DNA from: Escherichia coli O157:H7
Lineage (GTDB): Bacteria > Pseudomonadota > Gammaproteobacteria > Enterobacterales > Enterobacteriaceae
Reading direction: 5' to 3' (one strand)
Length of the DNA stretch: 64,000 bases
NCBI RefSeq assembly: GCF_013167455.1
Contig: NZ_CP038328.1
Part shown: one piece after another, positions 7,716 to 15,806 of the stretch
Position numbering within the stretch: the stretch's first letter is position 1
Layout of the letters: every line of letters starts with the position of its first letter
Translations under genes and position numbers: made by a program
The notes under the pieces: generated by a model
Told to the model about the DNA's origin: nothing
The model's database searches: none
What the model saw: only the letters and a program-made list of their open reading frames with translations

Positions 7716-8378
7716 TCAAACAAAACCAGCCGCCTTCCGGCGCTCGTATTCCTGTTTCAGTAATTCAATTGGCGTTGGCCCTTGCGGGCACTTCGGCGAT
7801 GCGAGTTGTCTCCGGATCGGGGGAATACTCATCCCGTTACCAACTTGCTTTGCCCATTTCGTCAGTTGCCGTTCTGCAAGTCGTTTTAACTCACCTTCCG
7901 TCATCTGCCGCTCAATCCCTCTGTCACGCATCTCGAGGCAAATGTGGTACAGCACCGGCTGTGGCCACGGGTATTTATCACTCCCGTCGTACCGCCAGGA
8001 TTCATTCCTCCAGCGACGGTACTCCTCCATCACGGCATCCACCGTCAGGCCAAATGGATTTGCCCCGCTCTCCGAAATCAACGCCACAAACTCAGCCAGG
8101 TCCGGAGGCCACGTTTCACCCGCCCGGCAGCGGTCCATGCACTGACGGCAGACCTGCCGGATTTGCTGTTCAGTCATCGCGCCAATCTGAGCAATCCAGA
8201 GCTTCGACGGCGCAGCCCCGTTCTTCTGGGTCCAGCGGTTCGAATACACCTCCCCCATAAGTTCCCACAGCTTCCAGGCCGTTTCCGTTGCTGATAAATC
8301 CGTTTTCACGTTCCCACTGTTCACGTGCTGCCCGAATTTCCTGAACTGCCCGTGATGCGGTGCCACCTGGTGCTGCAT
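7716..8378 (-). CDS. Replication protein P-like (lambda P family helicase loader); start uncertain (8378, 8258 or 8177)
   Basis: Aligns by eye to recalled lambda P: ETWPPDLAEFVALI vs PFLPSPGQFVAWC; YPWPQPVLYHICLEMRDRG vs YPWKSNAHYWLVTNLYQNMR; TEGELKRLAERQL vs TDAELRRKAADEL. Confidence 0.6.
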   Translation of the reverse strand: MQHQVAPHHGQFRKFGQHVNSGNVKTDLSATETAWKLWELMGEVYSNRWTQKNGAAPSKLWIAQIGAMTEQQIRQVCRQCMDRCRAGETWPPDLAEFVALISESGANPFGLTVDAVMEEYRRWRNESWRYDGSDKYPWPQPVLYHICLEMRDRGIERQMTEGELKRLAERQLTKWAKQVGNGMSIPPIRRQLASPKCPQGPTPIELLKQEYERRKAAGFV

Positions 8379-9213
8379 GGCTTACCCCCTTGCTGACTGG
8401 TTTTACCTGTGCCCTGACGTGCTGCACGTGACGGGCAAATTTCTGCTCCCACTGAACCTGCGTGAAAACCTTCCCCTCCGCCATCCAGTAATCCCGGAAT
8501 GCGGCAAGCTCAGCAGGTGTAAACTCAGGCTCAGGCAGAGCCATACCCCACAATGCAGCCCGCTGTCGAAAATCCAGCGACGGCCGCCAGACACCAGTCA
8601 TCGGAAATTTCCCGATCGGTTCGCTCAGGCCATCCGGGTATTCAGGTTCTGCTGTCTGCAACGGCGCGCCATTCGACTCACTGGCTGGAGCACTCTCGCG
8701 CATGCGCGCGTTATGTGTGGGGTTTAATTCTTTATCTGTATCTGTATCTGTCGTGACTTGTCGTGACATATGCGTGACGCGTCGTGACTCATCGTGACAA
8801 TCAGTGTTCTGCTCCCGCAGTCTTTCCCGCTCCCGCTGCGCTCTCTTGCGCTCTGCCGGGGATTTTGCGGTTTGCGAAACATTACCGTTATCCTCCTTCA
8901 TCACCTGGCGTTTTTCCCATCCGGAAATAAGATCGCCATCCAGAACTCGCCCCTGCATTGCATGCAAAATTGAATCAATCACGTCTTCCGTCACATCAAG
9001 CGCACTTGCTAAATCTTCCGTCGTGACATCAATGTGACCACGTAGTGACTCGCCGTGACATTTCGTGACATTTCGTGACGCACTCACCAGAAGGTGGATA
9101 TACACCGCCATCACTGTTGCGATTGGCTGTCCTGAGACCCTGGCAATGGTTCGCCATTTGGGATCATTTGGCATGTCATGCCACAATCTGAGCCAGGCAT
9201 TAGCCATACTCAC
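8170..9213 (-). CDS. Replication initiator / replisome organizer (O-like; DnaT-like C-terminal region)
   Basis: 347 aa; N-terminal WLRLWHDMPNDPKWRTIARVSGQP...ISGWEKRQ resembles the phage replisome-organizer N-domain; contains two iteron clusters. Confidence 0.6.
   Translation of the reverse strand: MSMANAWLRLWHDMPNDPKWRTIARVSGQPIATVMAVYIHLLVSASRNVTKCHGESLRGHIDVTTEDLASALDVTEDVIDSILHAMQGRVLDGDLISGWEKRQVMKEDNGNVSQTAKSPAERKRAQRERERLREQNTDCHDESRRVTHMSRQVTTDTDTDKELNPTHNARMRESAPASESNGAPLQTAEPEYPDGLSEPIGKFPMTGVWRPSLDFRQRAALWGMALPEPEFTPAELAAFRDYWMAEGKVFTQVQWEQKFARHVQHVRAQVKPVSKGVSHAAPGGTASRAVQEIRAAREQWERENGFISNGNGLEAVGTYGGGVFEPLDPEERGCAVEALDCSDWRDD
8751..8797. repeat. Iteron cluster A: 5 copies of (T)CGTGAC, preceded by TCTGTA repeats (putative origin inside O-like gene)
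   Basis: TCGTGACttgTCGTGACatatgCGTGACgcgTCGTGACtcaTCGTGAC read directly. Confidence 0.6.
9019..9080. repeat. Iteron cluster B: 6 GTGAC-containing repeats
   Basis: TCGTGACatcaaTGTGACcacgtaGTGACtcgcCGTGACatttCGTGACatttCGTGAC read directly. Confidence 0.55.
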
Positions 9214-9275
9214 CTCATCTGATACCGAACTTTACCCTCGAACATCCGGAAGAAATCCGGCATGAATATTGTTGG

Positions 9276-9701
9276 TCAATGCACGACAACAGCATTACCA
9301 GGCTGACCCCCACTGTTAGTCAGGGTGCCCCAGGCGATCGCCGCTGCGACAAAATCATCCACATCTTTCACCAGCCGATCCCTCCGTTCGACGATCTCAC
9401 GGTAATATTCAGAGCTGTGACTGCGCATACGGGCCACCAGCAGAGGCGGCATTGCCTTTTCGATCGCCGGTAACAGAGCCTGCATTTTTTCAACAGCATC
9501 AGGGGTGTCTTTATCCAGCCAACGGAAAATTTTCTGGGTATTACGAGCCAGGGCTTCCGGATGGCTGTCGTCGTACAGTTCCGGGAACGTCATCCCCAGT
9601 TCGAAATAAGTCCGGGCTATTTCAGCTGCAGGAACTTTCTCACCATCAGGATATGCCCAGGCATTCATCGCCATGCGGATGTGCTCATGTTTGATTTTCA
9701 T
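9276..9701 (-). CDS. YdaT-like protein (CII-like regulator position)
   Basis: 141 aa beginning MKIKHEHI, as recalled for Rac YdaT; follows the Cro-like gene. Confidence 0.55.
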   Translation of the reverse strand: MKIKHEHIRMAMNAWAYPDGEKVPAAEIARTYFELGMTFPELYDDSHPEALARNTQKIFRWLDKDTPDAVEKMQALLPAIEKAMPPLLVARMRSHSSEYYREIVERRDRLVKDVDDFVAAAIAWGTLTNSGGQPGNAVVVH

Positions 9702-10008
9702 GAATCATTTGCCTCTTGATGCTTCGGGTATGATCGTTTTCGTCATTTGGTTGCTTCATCGACATATTCTGCGAATAACATGACGAGCGTCGTAAGTATG
9801 TCCAATCAACATCAGGACGAAGTTCTTCACACAGGACACCACCTTTTGTTGCTCGTTCAATCGCAGGACATCTCTCAGCAGGCAACTGACGTACACCTTT
9901 GATCCATTGATTTACGCTTGGAGGAGATACACCTAAAAGCCTAGCCATTGCTGATTGCCCACCGACAACAGCACAAGCTCGTTTGAATGAATAGTTATCT
10001 TTTTTCAT
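9685..10008 (-). CDS. Cro-like HTH regulator (YdaS-like)
   Basis: MKKDNYSFKRACAVVGGQSAMARLLGVSPPSVNQWIKGVRQLPAERCPAIERATKGGVLCEELRPD; divergent from the repressor gene. Confidence 0.7.
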   Translation of the reverse strand: MKKDNYSFKRACAVVGGQSAMARLLGVSPPSVNQWIKGVRQLPAERCPAIERATKGGVLCEELRPDVDWTYLRRSSCYSQNMSMKQPNDENDHTRSIKRQMIHENQT

Positions 10009-10038
10009 CGAATGAACTCCAAAAAACACACAATAATA

Positions 10039-10104
10039 TTAGGCTTAGCCTAATGCAATTGTCAATAGGCTATGCCTAACGCTTCGAGAGTAGGTATTGC
10101 CTAA
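10039..10104. promoter_or_regulatory. Right operator region: three TTAGGC-N3-GCCTAA-type dyads between divergent cro-like and repressor genes
   Basis: TTAGGCttaGCCTAA (10039-10053), ATAGGCtatGCCTAA (10065-10079), TAGGTattGCCTAA (10090-10104). Confidence 0.6.
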
Positions 10105-10132
10105 TGCGATGCGCATAGGAGACTATTAAGCA

Positions 10133-10609
10133 ATGCTTAGTGGTAAAGACTTAGGCCGAGCGATAGAGCAGGCCATTAACAAAAAAATTGCATCAGGAGC
10201 CGTCAAATCAAAGGCGGAAATCGCACGTCATTTCAAAGTCCAACCACCATCAATCCATGACTGGATTAAGAAAGGTTCGATAAGTAAAGACAAACTTCCA
10301 GAACTATGGCGTTTCTTTTCTGATGTGGTTGGTCCAGAGCATTGGGGGCTTAACGAATACCCCATACCAACCCCATCCACTTCAGATACAAAAAGTGAAC
10401 TTTTAGACATAAACAGCCTTTATCAAGCCGCCTCTGATGAAAAAAGAGCAATTGTGGCTTTCCTCTTATCTGGAAATGCTACGGAGCCTAGTTGGGTTGA
10501 TCATGACGTTCGTGCCTACATTGCCGCAATGGAAATGAAGGTAGCTAACTATCTGAAAAATCAAGAATCAAAACGGAAAAGCCAGAACATCACCAAGACA
10601 GGAACTTAA
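10133..10609 (+). CDS. Prophage repressor, RacR-like (N-terminal XRE-type HTH, no S24 peptidase domain)
   Basis: 158 aa; HTH segment SKAEIARHFKVQPPSIHDWIKKG; same length and divergent arrangement as Rac RacR with ydaS/ydaT. Confidence 0.65.
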   Translation: MLSGKDLGRAIEQAINKKIASGAVKSKAEIARHFKVQPPSIHDWIKKGSISKDKLPELWRFFSDVVGPEHWGLNEYPIPTPSTSDTKSELLDINSLYQAASDEKRAIVAFLLSGNATEPSWVDHDVRAYIAAMEMKVANYLKNQESKRKSQNITKTGT

Positions 10610-10682
10610 ACTTATATGGTCCGACGGGAAATTCCTAGTTCCCGTTAGTTAACTCCTACTACCTCTCCCACAAACCATCACC

Positions 10683-10745
10683 TATTAGGTCGCACCCAAA
10701 TCATTAGGCGTAGCCTATTGACAAGCAATTAGGCATTTCCTATAG
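10683..10745 (+). promoter_or_regulatory. Left operator / pL-like promoter (TTGACA, 17 nt, TATAGT) overlapped by operator half-sites
   Basis: TTGACA at 10716-10721 and TATAGT at 10739-10744 with 17-nt spacer; dyads TTAGGCgtaGCCTAT (10702-10716) and TTAGGCattTCCTAT (10727-10741). Confidence 0.6.
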
Positions 10746-10846
10746 TTTTCCCATACCAACCCATCCCGTCCCACACAATACAGGGCAATACCTAGAGTTA
10801 CCCGGCAGTGGTCAGGGATTAAGTAGCCAGCCCGAGGCGTAAGAAC

Positions 10847-11077
10847 ATGACGGCAGGGTTCAACTTTAACTATGCAGCAGGTTTTTGTTCCGCTACCCCG
10901 GCGTTAAGGGGATATGAGGTCAGCATGGATACTCTTGATCTTGGCAACAACGAATCTCTGGTGTGCGGCGTGTTTCCCAACCAGGACGGCACGTTCACCG
11001 CGATGACGTATACCAAAAGCAAAACGTTTAAAACCGAATCTGGCGCGCGTCGCTGGTTAGCAAGAAACTCTGACTAA
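10847..11077 (+). CDS. Small early-left operon protein (YdaF/YdaG-like?; start may be 10925)
   Basis: ORF-track frame; GAGG-type ribosome-binding sites precede both candidate starts; first gene downstream of the pL-like promoter. Confidence 0.45.
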   Translation: MTAGFNFNYAAGFCSATPALRGYEVSMDTLDLGNNESLVCGVFPNQDGTFTAMTYTKSKTFKTESGARRWLARNSD

Positions 11078-11191
11078 TGAAATCTGGTAATTAAGGAATC
11101 CTCCACGGGGGGAGAGTGGTGCACACGCGCCGGACACAAGCAAGCATCCGGCATGCTCTTTAACAATCTGGATATCCATAACAGTAAAAAT

Positions 11192-11683
11192 CTACAGATT
11201 GCCGTTCAGTTTTCTGGCCAACTCTTCAATAGATGGAGGTGATACGTAATCCGGATTTTTATTCATAAGAAACTGATTTTCACAGTACAGGCACCTGCTT
11301 TTATGAAAAAATTCATATTCTCTAACCGGGAATGGCTGAAGTATCGATACTATCTTTTGTCCAAAACATTTTGGACAAAGATGCATGATTATGCTGCCGC
11401 CGTTCACGGTTACCTCCTTCGAGTACACAAAAGTTCCCGACTCAAGTTGGCTAAGGATATAACCTTCCGTCTGAGCCTCAAAGTTTTCAAATTCTGCAAT
11501 TTTAGCTTTGAGAGAAGCATTTATTTCTTGATAAGTGCCCACCAGCTCAACGAGAGACACGCATTCGCGCTGAATAGATGCAAGCTTTGAGTTCAGTTCA
11601 CCAATAGCCGCATTTACTTCAGCTTGAGTTTTTGCCTCGTTCATTAGTTTTGCAATCTGGGCGGTTTCACGAATAGCCGTCAT
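11192..11683 (-). CDS. Unknown 163-aa protein: N-terminal coiled coil, C-terminal CxxC...CxxC zinc-ribbon-like motif; counter-oriented within early-left operon
   Basis: MTAIRETAQIAKLMNEAKTQAEVNAAIGELNSKLASIQRE...HLCPKCFGQKIV...HKSRCLYCENQF...; start at 11683 avoids overlap with the exonuclease gene; flanked by 13-bp inverted repeats. Confidence 0.5.
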   Translation of the reverse strand: MTAIRETAQIAKLMNEAKTQAEVNAAIGELNSKLASIQRECVSLVELVGTYQEINASLKAKIAEFENFEAQTEGYILSQLESGTFVYSKEVTVNGGSIIMHLCPKCFGQKIVSILQPFPVREYEFFHKSRCLYCENQFLMNKNPDYVSPPSIEELARKLNGNL

Positions 11684-11884
11684 TGCTGCCGTTAATTCAG
11701 CGATCACATTCAATACTCTTATTGTTGTTGGGGATATCCAGATTAACAAGATCCTTGTTGTTGGGGAATAACGGGGACCACCTCGCCTGACGTGGTAAAA
11801 AGCAGGCACACAACACGAAAGCACACGGCGAGGGACACCATTAAATGGTGGCTTAAGCAATCACGCGAAGCGCAATCTGCCATT

Positions 11885-12229
11885 ATGACCGATGAAATCC
11901 CGTTAGATGATGCACTGTTACAATTGCGGGAATTTATCGACGAAAACTCCGGTGAATTTTTTGTTCAGGTCTGGGGAAATGGAGCCAACTTCGACAACAC
12001 GATTTTGCGCCGTTCATACGAACGGCAGGGGATCCCCTGCCCGTGGCGTTACTACAACGATCGCGATGTACGCACAATCGTTGAGCTGGGGAAAGCCATA
12101 GACTTCGATGCCAGAACGGCTATTCCATTCGAAGGTGAGCGCCATAATGCACTTGATGACGCCCGTTACCAGGCAAAATACGTTTCAGTTATCTGGCAAA
12201 AACTGATCCCGAGTCAGGCTGATTTTTAA
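11885..12229 (+). CDS. DEDDh (DnaQ-like) 3'-5' exonuclease
   Basis: VWGNGANFDNTILRR...GERHNALDDARYQAKY resembles DEDD-family exonuclease motifs; start taken at MTDEIPLDD. Confidence 0.6.
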   Translation: MTDEIPLDDALLQLREFIDENSGEFFVQVWGNGANFDNTILRRSYERQGIPCPWRYYNDRDVRTIVELGKAIDFDARTAIPFEGERHNALDDARYQAKYVSVIWQKLIPSQADF

Positions 12230-12290
12230 TGTTCAACCGTCGCCAGTTGTCGTTGATATTCTGCAACTGGCGCGTTCCGGAGTGATAGCC

Positions 12291-12560
12291 ATGAGCGAAC
12301 AGTACCTGATAACGCTCGACGAGTGGAAACCAAAACGGTTCAGTCTCCCAATAACAAACACTACCCTGGTGAAATACGGAAAACTAGGATACATCGTTCC
12401 AAGACCACAAAAAATTCGTGGGCGTTGGCTGATAGATCGCCGAGCAGTATTTGTTGGGCCTGGTGAAACGGGAATTGCGCCGGAAATTCATACTGGCGAT
12501 GATGATGCACTGAAGGAGATTTTAACTCATGTCACCGAGGCCACGAAAAAACAGCACTGA
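12291..12560 (+). CDS. xis: Excisionase (lambda Xis-like)
   Basis: MSEQYLITLDEWKPKRFS...PRPQKIRGRWLIDRRAV parallels recalled lambda Xis (MYLTLQEWNARQRRPRS...); overlaps int start. Confidence 0.7.
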   Translation: MSEQYLITLDEWKPKRFSLPITNTTLVKYGKLGYIVPRPQKIRGRWLIDRRAVFVGPGETGIAPEIHTGDDDALKEILTHVTEATKKQH

Positions 12561-13647
12561 CGTAGCCGGTCTTTACGAAAAGTTTGATCGCAGAACTGGC
12601 AGAGTTTACTACCAGTATAAAAATCCTGTGACTGGAAAATTTCACGGACTCGGAACAGACAAAGGTAAGGCAGAAAAAATCGCTTCCACAGCCAATCAGC
12701 GAATAGCTGCAGCAGAAGCTGAATATTTCATGCGCAAAATTGATGAAAGTCCGTCAGCAACAAAACGTCGGGGTATCAGATTAAAGGCATGGGTTGATCG
12801 ATATCTGAAAATACAGGACACGCGACTGAAAAATGGAGATATTGCAGCTACAACTCACAAAGAAAAAACTCGAATGGCTGCATACCTGGTTTCCCGTCTG
12901 GGAAACCACCCATTGAAAGAACTGGAAGTAAGAGACTTTGCATTAATACTGGATGAGTGGCTGGATAAAGACATGGTCAGTACAGCGAGAGTAAATCGTG
13001 GATTATGGGTTGATATTTATAAAGAAGCACAGCATGCAGGGGAAGTTCCTCCTGGATGGAATCCTCCGGAGGCTACCCGTAAACCGATCCCTAAAGTAAC
13101 CAGAGCCAGGCTCACCATGGAAGACTGGCAAAAAATTTACAATGCAACGCCTGAAAAACACTTTATCCGTAACGCAATGCTTCTTGCGATTGTTACTGGT
13201 CAGCGCCGTGATGACATTTGCCACATGCGTTTTTCAGATGTGTGGAACGAACACTTGCATATCACCCAGGGAAAAACCGGAATGCGTCTGGCGTTACCGC
13301 TTACACTACGCTGTGATGCCATTGGGATAACGTTAAAAGAAGTTATTGATGGGTGCCGAGACAGAATATTAAGTCCATATCTAATCCATAGTCGGCACCA
13401 GAAACAACCGAAGCCGATGAGTAAAGACAACCTGAGCGACTACTTTGCCAAAGCACGGGATCTGGCTGGGGTAATTCCACCAGCAGGAAAAACTCCGCCA
13501 ACATTTCATGAACAACGCTCTCTATCAGAACGGCTGTACCGTGCACAGGGTATCGATACAAAAACATTACTAGGACATAAAGTCCAGGCAACCACCGATC
13601 GCTATAACGATACTCGAGGTCAGGAATGGGTTAAGTTGGTTATTTGA
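12529..13647 (+). CDS. int: Tyrosine integrase (lambda Int family)
   Basis: 372 aa; N-terminal GRVYYQYKNPVTGKFHGLG vs recalled lambda GYYCYRDPRTGKEFGLG; catalytic-region TGQRRDDICHMRFSD, LLGHK, DRYNDTRGQEW. Confidence 0.9.
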   Translation: MSPRPRKNSTDVAGLYEKFDRRTGRVYYQYKNPVTGKFHGLGTDKGKAEKIASTANQRIAAAEAEYFMRKIDESPSATKRRGIRLKAWVDRYLKIQDTRLKNGDIAATTHKEKTRMAAYLVSRLGNHPLKELEVRDFALILDEWLDKDMVSTARVNRGLWVDIYKEAQHAGEVPPGWNPPEATRKPIPKVTRARLTMEDWQKIYNATPEKHFIRNAMLLAIVTGQRRDDICHMRFSDVWNEHLHITQGKTGMRLALPLTLRCDAIGITLKEVIDGCRDRILSPYLIHSRHQKQPKPMSKDNLSDYFAKARDLAGVIPPAGKTPPTFHEQRSLSERLYRAQGIDTKTLLGHKVQATTDRYNDTRGQEWVKLVI

Positions 13648-13697
13648 CAAACACCATATGGAATATCCGTCACCATCTCAGGAAAAAAGTGTTGTAA

Positions 13698-13817
13698 AAT
13701 GCGTGGCCTAGTTTTGGGGAAACGTTTTGGAGAGATTTTGGAGAAAGGAAAAAATTGAATAAATTCAAAATCCTGAAAGTGTCCCGCCTTATGAATAAAA
13801 AGGTGGAACTCGAATGA
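13698..13817 (+). other. Prophage-host junction: arm-type direct repeats TTTTGGAGA x2 and probable att core reconstituting the potB 3' end (stop overlaps potC ATG)
   Basis: Open frame ends TGA overlapping ATG of potC at 13814; TTTTGGAGAgaTTTTGGAGAaa at 13725-13748; no full potB upstream. Confidence 0.4.
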
Positions 13818-14608
13818 TCGGTCGACTGCTTCGCGGCGGTTTTATGACCGCTATCTACGCGTACCTGTATATCCCAATCATTATTTTGATTGTGAACTCC
13901 TTTAACAGCTCGCGCTTTGGCATCAACTGGCAGGGTTTTACCACCAAATGGTATAGCCTGCTGATGAACAACGACAGCCTGTTACAGGCAGCGCAGCATT
14001 CACTAACAATGGCGGTGTTTTCGGCGACGTTTGCTACGCTTATCGGTTCACTGACGGCAGTTGCGCTGTACCGTTATCGCTTTCGTGGTAAGCCGTTCGT
14101 TAGCGGAATGCTGTTTGTGGTGATGATGTCACCAGATATCGTGATGGCGATTTCGCTGCTGGTGCTGTTTATGCTGCTGGGTATTCAGCTTGGCTTCTGG
14201 TCGCTGCTGTTCTCGCATATCACCTTCTGCCTGCCATTTGTGGTGGTGACGGTGTATTCGCGCCTGAAAGGTTTTGACGTGCGGATGCTGGAAGCGGCGA
14301 AAGATCTCGGTGCCAGCGAATTTACCATTCTGCGAAAAATCATTCTGCCACTGGCAATGCCAGCGGTGGCGGCAGGCTGGGTGTTAAGCTTTACCCTGTC
14401 GATGGACGATGTGGTGGTTTCTTCGTTCGTCACCGGGCCGAGTTATGAAATTCTGCCGTTAAAAATTTATTCGATGGTCAAAGTCGGCGTATCGCCGGAA
14501 GTTAACGCGCTGGCAACCATATTACTGGTGCTGTCGCTGGTGATGGTTATTGCCAGCCAGCTTATTGCTCGTGATAAAACGAAAGGTAACACAGGGGACG
14601 TTAAATGA
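13814..14608 (+). CDS. potC: Spermidine/putrescine ABC transporter permease PotC
   Basis: 264-aa polytopic membrane protein; recognised as PotC. Confidence 0.95.
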   Translation: MIGRLLRGGFMTAIYAYLYIPIIILIVNSFNSSRFGINWQGFTTKWYSLLMNNDSLLQAAQHSLTMAVFSATFATLIGSLTAVALYRYRFRGKPFVSGMLFVVMMSPDIVMAISLLVLFMLLGIQLGFWSLLFSHITFCLPFVVVTVYSRLKGFDVRMLEAAKDLGASEFTILRKIILPLAMPAVAAGWVLSFTLSMDDVVVSSFVTGPSYEILPLKIYSMVKVGVSPEVNALATILLVLSLVMVIASQLIARDKTKGNTGDVK

Positions 14609-15651
14609 AAAAATGGTCACGCCACCTGCTCGCGGCGGGTGCTCTGGCACTGGGCATGAGCGCCGCTCACGCCGATGACAACAACACGCTGTATTTCTAC
14701 AACTGGACCGAGTACGTGCCGCCAGGACTGCTTGAACAGTTCACCAAAGAAACCGGTATTAAGGTTATCTATTCGACTTACGAGTCGAACGAAACCATGT
14801 ATGCCAAGCTGAAAACGTACAAAGACGGTGCCTATGACCTGGTGGTTCCTTCAACCTATTACGTCGATAAAATGCGTAAAGAAGGGATGATCCAGAAGAT
14901 CGACAAGTCGAAGTTAACGAACTTCAGCAATCTCGATCCAGACATGCTCAATAAGCCGTTTGACCCGAATAACGATTACTCCATTCCGTATATCTGGGGT
15001 GCGACGGCGATTGGCGTTAACGGTGATGCGGTGGATCCGAAATCTGTCACCAGCTGGGCCGATTTGTGGAAGCCTGAGTACAAAGGCAGCCTGCTGCTGA
15101 CCGACGATGCCCGTGAAGTGTTCCAGATGGCGCTACGTAAGCTGGGCTACTCCGGTAACACCACCGATCCGAAAGAGATTGAAGCTGCATATAACGAGCT
15201 GAAAAAACTGATGCCAAACGTCGCAGCGTTTAACTCCGATAACCCGGCTAACCCGTACATGGAAGGCGAAGTTAACCTCGGCATGATCTGGAACGGTTCT
15301 GCTTTCGTTGCACGCCAGGCGGGTACGCCTATTGACGTGGTGTGGCCGAAAGAAGGCGGCATATTCTGGATGGACAGCCTGGCGATCCCGGCAAATGCCA
15401 AAAACAAAGAAGGCGCGCTGAAATTGATCAACTTCCTGCTGCGCCCGGATGTGGCAAAACAGGTTGCTGAAACTATCGGTTATCCAACGCCAAACCTTGC
15501 GGCGCGTAAGCTGTTAAGTCCAGAAGTGGCGAACGATAAGACGCTCTCCCCGGATGCTGAAACCATTAAAAATGGCGAATGGCAGAATGACGTTGGCGCA
15601 GCCAGCAGCATTTATGAAGAGTATTATCAGAAGCTGAAAGCAGGACGTTAA
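14605..15651 (+). CDS. potD: Spermidine/putrescine periplasmic binding protein PotD
   Basis: 348 aa with signal peptide; recognised as PotD. Confidence 0.95.
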   Translation: MKKWSRHLLAAGALALGMSAAHADDNNTLYFYNWTEYVPPGLLEQFTKETGIKVIYSTYESNETMYAKLKTYKDGAYDLVVPSTYYVDKMRKEGMIQKIDKSKLTNFSNLDPDMLNKPFDPNNDYSIPYIWGATAIGVNGDAVDPKSVTSWADLWKPEYKGSLLLTDDAREVFQMALRKLGYSGNTTDPKEIEAAYNELKKLMPNVAAFNSDNPANPYMEGEVNLGMIWNGSAFVARQAGTPIDVVWPKEGGIFWMDSLAIPANAKNKEGALKLINFLLRPDVAKQVAETIGYPTPNLAARKLLSPEVANDKTLSPDAETIKNGEWQNDVGAASSIYEEYYQKLKAGR

Positions 15652-15660
15652 TTCAGCAAG

Positions 15661-15692
15661 CGGGCGGTGGTATTACCGCCCGTTTTTTAGTT
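15661..15692 (+). terminator. potD intrinsic terminator
   Basis: GCGGGCGGTGGTATTACCGCCCG followed by TTTTTT. Confidence 0.7.
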
Positions 15693-15751
15693 AGCAAGGA
15701 TGTGGCTAATGAGTCAGGACAGTAAAGTTTTATCCCGCTCTTTCGTCGGTA

Positions 15752-15800
15752 TTGTGGTCCGCTTGTAGGCCTGATAAGCGTAGCGCATCAGGCAATGCTT
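15752..15800. repeat. REP element
   Basis: GCCTGATAAGCGTAGCGCATCAGGC palindromic unit. Confidence 0.7.
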
Positions 15801-15806
15801 CCTGCT

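Follow-up and report, generated by a model that had tools for sequence, protein, structure and literature searches.

In phage lambda, the int gene is transcribed towards the shorter arm of the attachment site, which holds three tandem sites (P'1-P'3), and the longer arm has a distal site (P1) together with an IHF-type bending site (H1). Phage 21 and e14 integrate inside the 3' end of icd and bring a replacement 3' end, which keeps the gene open. For the potABCD operon, potC is reported as an insertion site of Stx phages in LEE-negative STEC in the passage of PMC8065619 that cites Steyert et al. A prophage located between potC and potB in Escherichia coli O157:H7 matches the Sakai prophage Sp6 at 99-100% (PMC8190617), and Sp6 is also named PP_potB (PMC9997748). 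The int and xis genes of Sakai Sp6 are intact, the prophage undergoes spontaneous excision and circle formation, and a marked derivative transfers to K-12, where it integrates at the same potB/potC locus; the repressor, recombination, and morphogenesis genes of Sp6 are defective (PMC2669165). None of PMC2669165, PMC8190617, and PMC9997748 states where the crossover lies or describes core-type half-sites, arm repeats, or an altered PotB tail.

We analyzed a stretch of 64,000 nucleotides of an E. coli O157:H7 chromosome (referred to here, at its full length, as the window) that includes one end of such a prophage. Nothing substantive distinguishes this element from Sp6/PP_potB, with which it shares the host lineage, the potB-potC insertion, a size of ~48 kb, and effector cargo at the far end (PMC2669165, PMC8190617, PMC9997748). 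It is a known prophage at a known site with ordinary lambda-type integration and has already been described; our modest additions are a base-level map of the att site and the exchange of the PotB tail, and no new element is reported. As in lambda, Int is heterobivalent, combining an N-terminal arm-binding domain with a core of the tyrosine-recombinase type (E = 5e-54 to lambda Int structures), and xis overlaps its gene. Also as in lambda, imperfect inverted 7-mers lie on either side of a 7-bp overlap, and int is transcribed towards the shorter arm, whose three tandem repeats face a distal repeat and an IHF-type site on the longer, opposite arm. Unlike lambda, which uses the intergenic gal-bio site, the target is the 3' end of potB; the predicted overlap (TGAATAA) and the candidate arm motif (TTTTGGRGA) also differ. 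The insertion resembles those of phage 21 and e14 in icd in that the 3' end of a protein-coding gene is used and a substitute is borne by the phage, whereas here the substitute is only ~7 codons long, the last residues are changed, two amino acids are added, and an operon is split (potAB / potCD). The Stx phages reported at potC have the same chromosomal insertion locus according to the cited passage, but they carry stx, whereas Sp6 has T3SS effectors and, in the part of it seen here, no stx.

Identity and extent of the prophage

According to the annotation, window positions 1-13791 contain early, regulatory, and replication genes, a Q antiterminator gene, xis, and int. Many E. coli O157:H7 chromosomes match positions 1-13800 with 100% identity. 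In one of these 100% matches over 13.8 kb, NZ_CP018250.1, a distance of 48,422 bp separates the core copies, which puts the far junction ~34.6 kb beyond window position 1. Starting from the junction described here, the order in NZ_CP018250.1 is early, lysis, head, and tail genes, then nleL, espN, and espK, then the 3' end of potB, with potA and pepT following. The non-LEE effector genes nleL, espN, and espK adjoin potB at the int-distal end of that prophage, and this effector end falls outside the window.

Annotation and genome comparison both place the prophage between potB and potC of O157:H7. The first-pass annotation had proposed a prophage at the 3' end of potB that directly abuts an intact potC and has its second junction outside the window, and the genome comparison, the gene annotation, and the published description (PMC8190617) bear this out. 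An uninterrupted potB upstream, which would contradict insertion, was looked for, and potB was not uninterrupted. Duplication of the core at the other prophage end, which had been anticipated, was found (TGAATAA is present at both junctions), and alignment to the prophage-free pot locus of K-12 located the att core. We conclude with high confidence that positions 13648-13817 are the integrase-proximal attachment junction (attL by the lambda convention) of the 48.4-kb lambdoid prophage Sp6, an identity that we infer from the 100% matches to many O157:H7 genomes and the 99-100% match reported in PMC8190617. The locations of the features are collected in Table 1.

Table 1. Features of the Sp6 attachment junction and its surroundings (window coordinates).
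Feature	Position	Strand	Evidence
Integrase-proximal 13.8 kb of lambdoid prophage Sp6 (PP_potB)	1..13791	.	Identity to O157:H7 chromosomes and annotation
xis, excisionase WP_000003742.1, overlaps int start	12291..12560	+	Annotation; PHROG phrog_629 excisionase, E = 4.6e-26
int, lambda-type tyrosine integrase, 372 aa	12529..13647	+	Pfam and lambda Int alignment
Conserved integrase-proximal arm, equivalent to lambda P'	13683..13791	+	Homology in relatives
Three tandem direct repeats TTTTGGRGA, candidate Int arm-type sites	13712-13720, 13725-13733, 13736-13744	+	Enrichment, conservation
Perfect palindrome TTGAATAAATTCAA in A/T-rich stretch between arm repeats and core	13755..13768	.	Read from sequence
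Phage core-type half-site C (CGCCTTA), end of potB-like codons (..S R L M)	13785..13791	+	Imperfect inverted repeat in attP
TGAATAA, 7-bp crossover (overlap) region common to attP and attB	13792..13798	+	Allele comparison
Orphaned native 3' end of potB (..N K K V E L E stop)	13792..13817	+	Sole potB match in window
potC Shine-Dalgarno-like AAGGTGG, 7 nt before ATG	13800..13806	+	Read from sequence; identical in empty site
potC, intact, 264 aa, WP_000580316.1	13814..14608	+	Same protein accession in K-12 and O157
potD, intact	14605..15651	+	Annotation

The junction sequence at 13735-13812 is present in 1617 of the 5426 complete E. coli genomes, and 3800 of the 5426 have an uninterrupted potB-potC site; the prophage family splits potABCD in ~30% of the complete E. 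coli genomes in RefSeq. The identification has little importance beyond correct annotation, that is, recognition that the window starts inside prophage Sp6.

A search of the phage collection gave only ON470612 and ON470619. These INPHARED 'phage' records (ON470612.1 and ON470619.1, loci L004 and L005, named vB_EcoS-640R1 and vB_EcoS-813R8) have untrimmed chromosomal flanks, and they were rejected as a source of attP, being mis-trimmed prophage predictions that retain host potC, potD, ymfA, and ycfZ.

Integrase and excisionase

The int gene is transcribed towards the att site and potC, its stop codon occupies positions 13645-13647, and potC starts 166 nt past that codon; the gene end at 13647 and the full-length potC start at 13814 given in the first-pass annotation agree with the open reading frames and with the gene annotation. 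The product matches Pfam PF09003 (Arm-DNA-bind_1) over residues 1-64 (E = 7.3e-21) and PF00589 (Phage_integrase) over residues 194-363 (E = 8.8e-18), and residues 26-371 align to the lambda Int structure 1z1b (E = 5.4e-54). Conserved in this alignment are TGQR, KTG, FHExRS, LLGHK, and Y, which we take to be the motifs carrying the lambda Int catalytic residues (R-K-H-R-H-Y). An NCBIfam search gave no match for int, xis, or the short open frame ahead of potC and was uninformative, so Pfam, PHROGs, and the PDB were used.

In the O145:H28 strain RM12761 (locus L007, 505-1623), the orthologous integrase gene has an internal stop codon, and as a result the Sp6-like prophage of this strain is probably fixed at its site.

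Position of the crossover

The crossover was located by comparing contiguous attP copies, the alleles of empty attB sites, and the two junctions. In the O157 lysogen, the int-proximal junction reads CGCCTTA-TGAATAA-AAAGGTGG, with phage sequence on the left and a bacterial A allele on the right, and the far junction reads CGTCTGC-TGAATAA-GAAGGCAA (also given as CGTCTGC-TGAATAA-GAAGGCAACAG), with bacterial sequence on the left and a phage G on the right. Seven contiguous attP copies were available, four from IMG/VR contigs that continue past int through both arms and three from P-O-P' sites in tandem arrays of complete genomes; most IMG/VR loci end immediately past the int stop codon and could not be used in the att analysis. 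All seven copies have ..CCTTA-TGAATAA-GAAGG... Among prophage-free genomes, the attB allele ..CTGC-TGAATAA-AAAGGTGG.. is common, for example in ATCC 8739 and E. coli C, and some have ..TGAACAA-AAAGG.. instead (a C+A allele); the A and C+A alleles are both synonymous in potB. A13799 is accordingly the bacterial attB allele at the int-proximal junction, with the phage G at the far junction. The attP and attB parents thus differ at the positions flanking TGAATAA on either side, and the comparison fixes the crossover in this 7-mer, 17-23 nt ahead of the potB stop codon. The precise cleavage positions within 13792-13798 are suggested by the allele patterns together with dyad symmetry, and the parental sites are predicted to have been ..CGCCTTA-TGAATAA-GAAGGCAACAG.. 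for attP and ..CGTCTGC-TGAATAA-AAAGGTGGAAC.. for attB.

The symmetry of the flanking 7-mers was scored in the same attP copies. The left 7-mer is CGCCTTA or CACCTTA and the right one GAAGGCA or GAAGGTG, which are imperfectly inverted with respect to each other; six copies have a dyad match of 5/7 or 6/7, and the seventh (L092) has one of 4/7. Across the window, 1.5% of positions reach at least 5/7 and 0.18% at least 6/7. The dyad symmetry of the bacterial attB half-sites is only 3/7.

A first three-way alignment had shown a common core of 12 bp, TGAATAA[A/G]AAGG, with an internal A/G difference, and the int-proximal junction has A where both K-12 attB and the far junction have G. These observations would suit a crossover placed further right, in the AAGG(TG) of the 12-14 bp that all sites share (TGAATAAGAAGG), with A13799 brought in by the phage. 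Against this, G is found in all seven contiguous attP copies and A in none, and the A and C+A alleles are common in prophage-free sites and silent in potB. With an Sp6-type attP, moreover, the stretch shared to the right is only 4 bp (AAGG), and no dyad symmetry is centred there. We regard the rightward placement as very unlikely, and the 12-bp core with A as the phage allele and exchange in AAGG was dropped once the attP copies and empty-site alleles had been compared. Exchange inside TGAATAA is the reading followed below.

The lysogen L009 (NZ_AP022159.1) has TGAACAA at the int-proximal junction and TGAATAA at the far junction. Such an event would require either recombination across a one-base heterology within the proposed overlap or exchange confined to TGAA, and the C allele was evidently already present in the host clade of L009.

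Contiguous P-O-P' sites were seen in 13 complete genomes, for example NZ_CP024618.1 (L090), NZ_CP027544.1 (L091), and NZ_CP027325.1 (L092), which indicates that prophages at the potB site can be arranged in tandem or be composite.

Arms of the attachment site

Diverse lysogens and free attP copies have nearly the same int-proximal arm. Positions 13648-13682, between the int stop codon and this arm, are a replaceable spacer: in relatives that have a DUF2335 gene pair after int, homology resumes at 13683. Within the arm, TTTTGGAGA occurs at 13725-13733 and again at 13736-13744, and a third copy of the motif, TTTTGGGGA, at 13712-13720. The first-pass annotation had noted a direct repeat in two copies at 13725-13748; both copies are present, the end is at 13744 (4 nt earlier than given), and the third copy had escaped notice. 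TTTTGGRGA occurs four times in the 64 kb against 0.97 expected, no shuffle reached four copies (0/100), and three of the four window copies are within 33 bp at 13712-13744. They lie 48-80 bp from the crossover with spacings of 13 and 11 bp, and they are largely kept in the 15 int-proximal arms examined, with some flanking bases varying and the first copy altered in L092.

The far arm falls outside the window. It comes in at least two types, which are only partly alike, with homology ending ~170 bp from the core. Both types have a fourth copy of the repeat, TTTTGGAGA, exactly +131 nt from the crossover, and in the Sp6 type a perfect IHF consensus (AATCAAACAGTTG) adjoins it. When at most one mismatch was allowed, the IHF consensus was not found in the int-proximal arm, palindrome TTGAATAAATTCAA included; the palindrome could be a site for a bending protein.

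Since the repeats are present on both arms in a layout like that of P'1-P'3 and P1/H1 of lambda, we consider it probable that they are arm-type sites for Int. An arm-type reading had been offered earlier for the two copies then recognized; it was plausible, and the third copy and the conserved fourth copy in the other arm strengthen it. Alternatively, the repeats might be bound by the excisionase or by a bending protein of the host, or might be plain A/T-rich repetitive DNA: tandem direct repeats spaced at about one helical turn also describe the Xis sites of lambda, and TTTTGGRGA is unlike the lambda arm-type consensus. We judge this clearly less probable, as the same 9-mer is kept at a conserved distance in both arms despite divergence of the far arm, Int has an arm-binding domain that needs such sites, and the arrangement of three int-adjacent sites with a distal site on the other arm is that of P'1-P'3 and P1. 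The repeats are accordingly listed as candidate Int arm-type sites in Table 1. The base-level map as a whole (the 7-bp crossover, half-sites, arm repeats, and attB alleles) may help insertion-site typing of STEC and engineering with the integrase.

The module found in some relatives between the int stop codon and the arm consists of two genes (a DUF2335 protein and a hypothetical protein) on the opposite strand. It is located at positions 623-1271 of L090 and L091 and downstream of int in the IMG/VR loci L079-L088, and the arm is unchanged from the equivalent of position 13683 onwards.

In L003 (35394-35361, - strand), the far arm can fold at +65 to +98 from the crossover into a strong hairpin, GGCATGCT..AGCATGCC (-21.8 kcal/mol, z = -5.1), which directly follows the potB stop codon supplied by the phage. 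The hairpin might act as a sib/tI-like element on int transcripts of the free phage or as a terminator of potAB in the lysogen. The other far-arm type folds weakly (z = -0.8), and we do not claim a conserved sib-like element in the far arm.

Replacement of the potB tail

The attP site mimics the 3' end of potB. It encodes SRLMNKK followed by ATEIDN-stop (Sp6 type) or VSELDD-stop (the other type), compared with ..SRLLNKKVELE-stop in the native gene. The substitute codons and stop are in frame, so potB stays open, and at the far junction, 48 kb away, the potB body is completed by phage codons (..NKK-ATEIDN-stop). The two phage tails are divergent, and both yield a PotB of 287 aa versus the native 285 aa; correspondingly, potB is annotated as 864 bp in lysogens versus 858 bp in K-12. 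PotB in lysogens therefore has a phage-encoded tail.

Ahead of potC, the situation is reversed. When K-12 potB was compared by BLAST with the whole window, only its last 26 nt (13792-13817) were matched, with one mismatch, in agreement with the earlier remark that no potB body precedes potC; potA had no BLAST match in the whole window. Also as first described, a short open frame ends in a TGA (13815-17) that overlaps the potC ATG (13814-16), and it is open back to a TAG at 13713-15. To the right of the crossover this frame reads A AAG GTG GAA CTC GAA TGA, that is, the third base of a Lys codon and then KVELE-stop. These codons are the original bacterial potB tail, now orphaned, and only the ..SRLM on the left is from the phage. 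The first-pass suggestion that the phage site restores the last potB codons thus holds at the far junction, where ATEIDN-stop is supplied, and fails for the frame ahead of potC, which ends in the native tail. The Shine-Dalgarno sequence of potC has been kept because it sits on the bacterial side of the crossover.

We also considered whether the 34-codon frame at 13716-13817 is a real small gene, either a leader coupled into potC or a functional C-terminal fragment of PotB. It is an open frame that runs into the native ATGA overlap with potC, and it is unbroken in the lysogens inspected. It consists mostly of arm DNA, however, so that recombination sites explain its conservation, and ~22 extra open codons are not unusual. 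Furthermore, the frame has no family match in NCBIfam, the substitutions within it in L009 are not preferentially synonymous, and potC has a Shine-Dalgarno sequence of its own. A small gene here is very improbable, and the potB remnant ahead of potC should not be called a gene.

Proposed integration and expression of potCD

In the mechanism that we propose, a lambda-type Int would have recombined attP with attB in the last codons of potB by an exchange within TGAATAA, with Xis helping excision. The sequence to the left of the 7-mer is of phage origin, including the CGCCTTA half-site, the A/T-rich spacer, and the three TTTTGGRGA repeats, to which the N-terminal domain of Int is expected to bind. 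To the right is the original chromosome, with the potB tail, the ribosome-binding site of potC, potC, and potD. Integration has in this way left the potB body ending in phage codons and the native tail orphaned ahead of potC. The potCD genes, severed from the potA promoter by 48 kb, would be transcribed by read-through from int.

In nearly one-third of sequenced E. coli, a 48-kb prophage lies between potCD and its promoter, and the main biological question posed by this arrangement is how potCD is expressed. A scan of positions 12200-14000 revealed no + strand terminator and no sigma-70-like promoter between int and potC, and folding of 13648-13813 gave no unusual structure (z = -0.7). Read-through from int would account most simply for potCD expression and is regarded as putative. 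In a stronger version, potCD would be transcribed solely via int/xis read-through, spermidine uptake would be under prophage control, and the att site would have been shaped to keep the operon working. The lack of a terminator and of a recognisable promoter between int and potC makes this conceivable, and we consider it doubtful. If it were true, the shaping of the att site would be seen in the mimic of the potB tail and in the kept ribosome-binding site of potC. Were potCD dependent on read-through from int, the strains with the DUF2335 module would provide a natural test case.

Other features of the prophage and flank

Several further features were seen in the prophage. The gene for an ExoVIII-type exonuclease (11792-12229, +) is reduced to its last 145 codons, compared with ~2.4 kb in the related prophages L007-L009, and a hypothetical gene (11192-11860, -) abuts the remnant; the truncation fits the recombination module of Sp6 being defective as published. 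Positions 9276-10609 are an immunity region of the Rac type. Its RacR-like repressor gene (10133-10609), which has no PHROG match, diverges from an HTH gene (9685-10029) and a YdaT-family gene (9276-9701), and the repressor has no peptidase domain, in agreement with the failure of mitomycin C to induce Sp6. A hokD-type type I toxin gene (3947-4102, -) is present in the early-late region of the prophage.

On the other side of the junction, ymfA and ycfZ, which follow potD in K-12, are missing (15652-15806), and K-12 homology stops at 15731. The potD gene is followed here by a REP-like sequence, GTAGGCCTGATAAGCGTAGCGCATCAGGCA, and then by cobB on the opposite strand.
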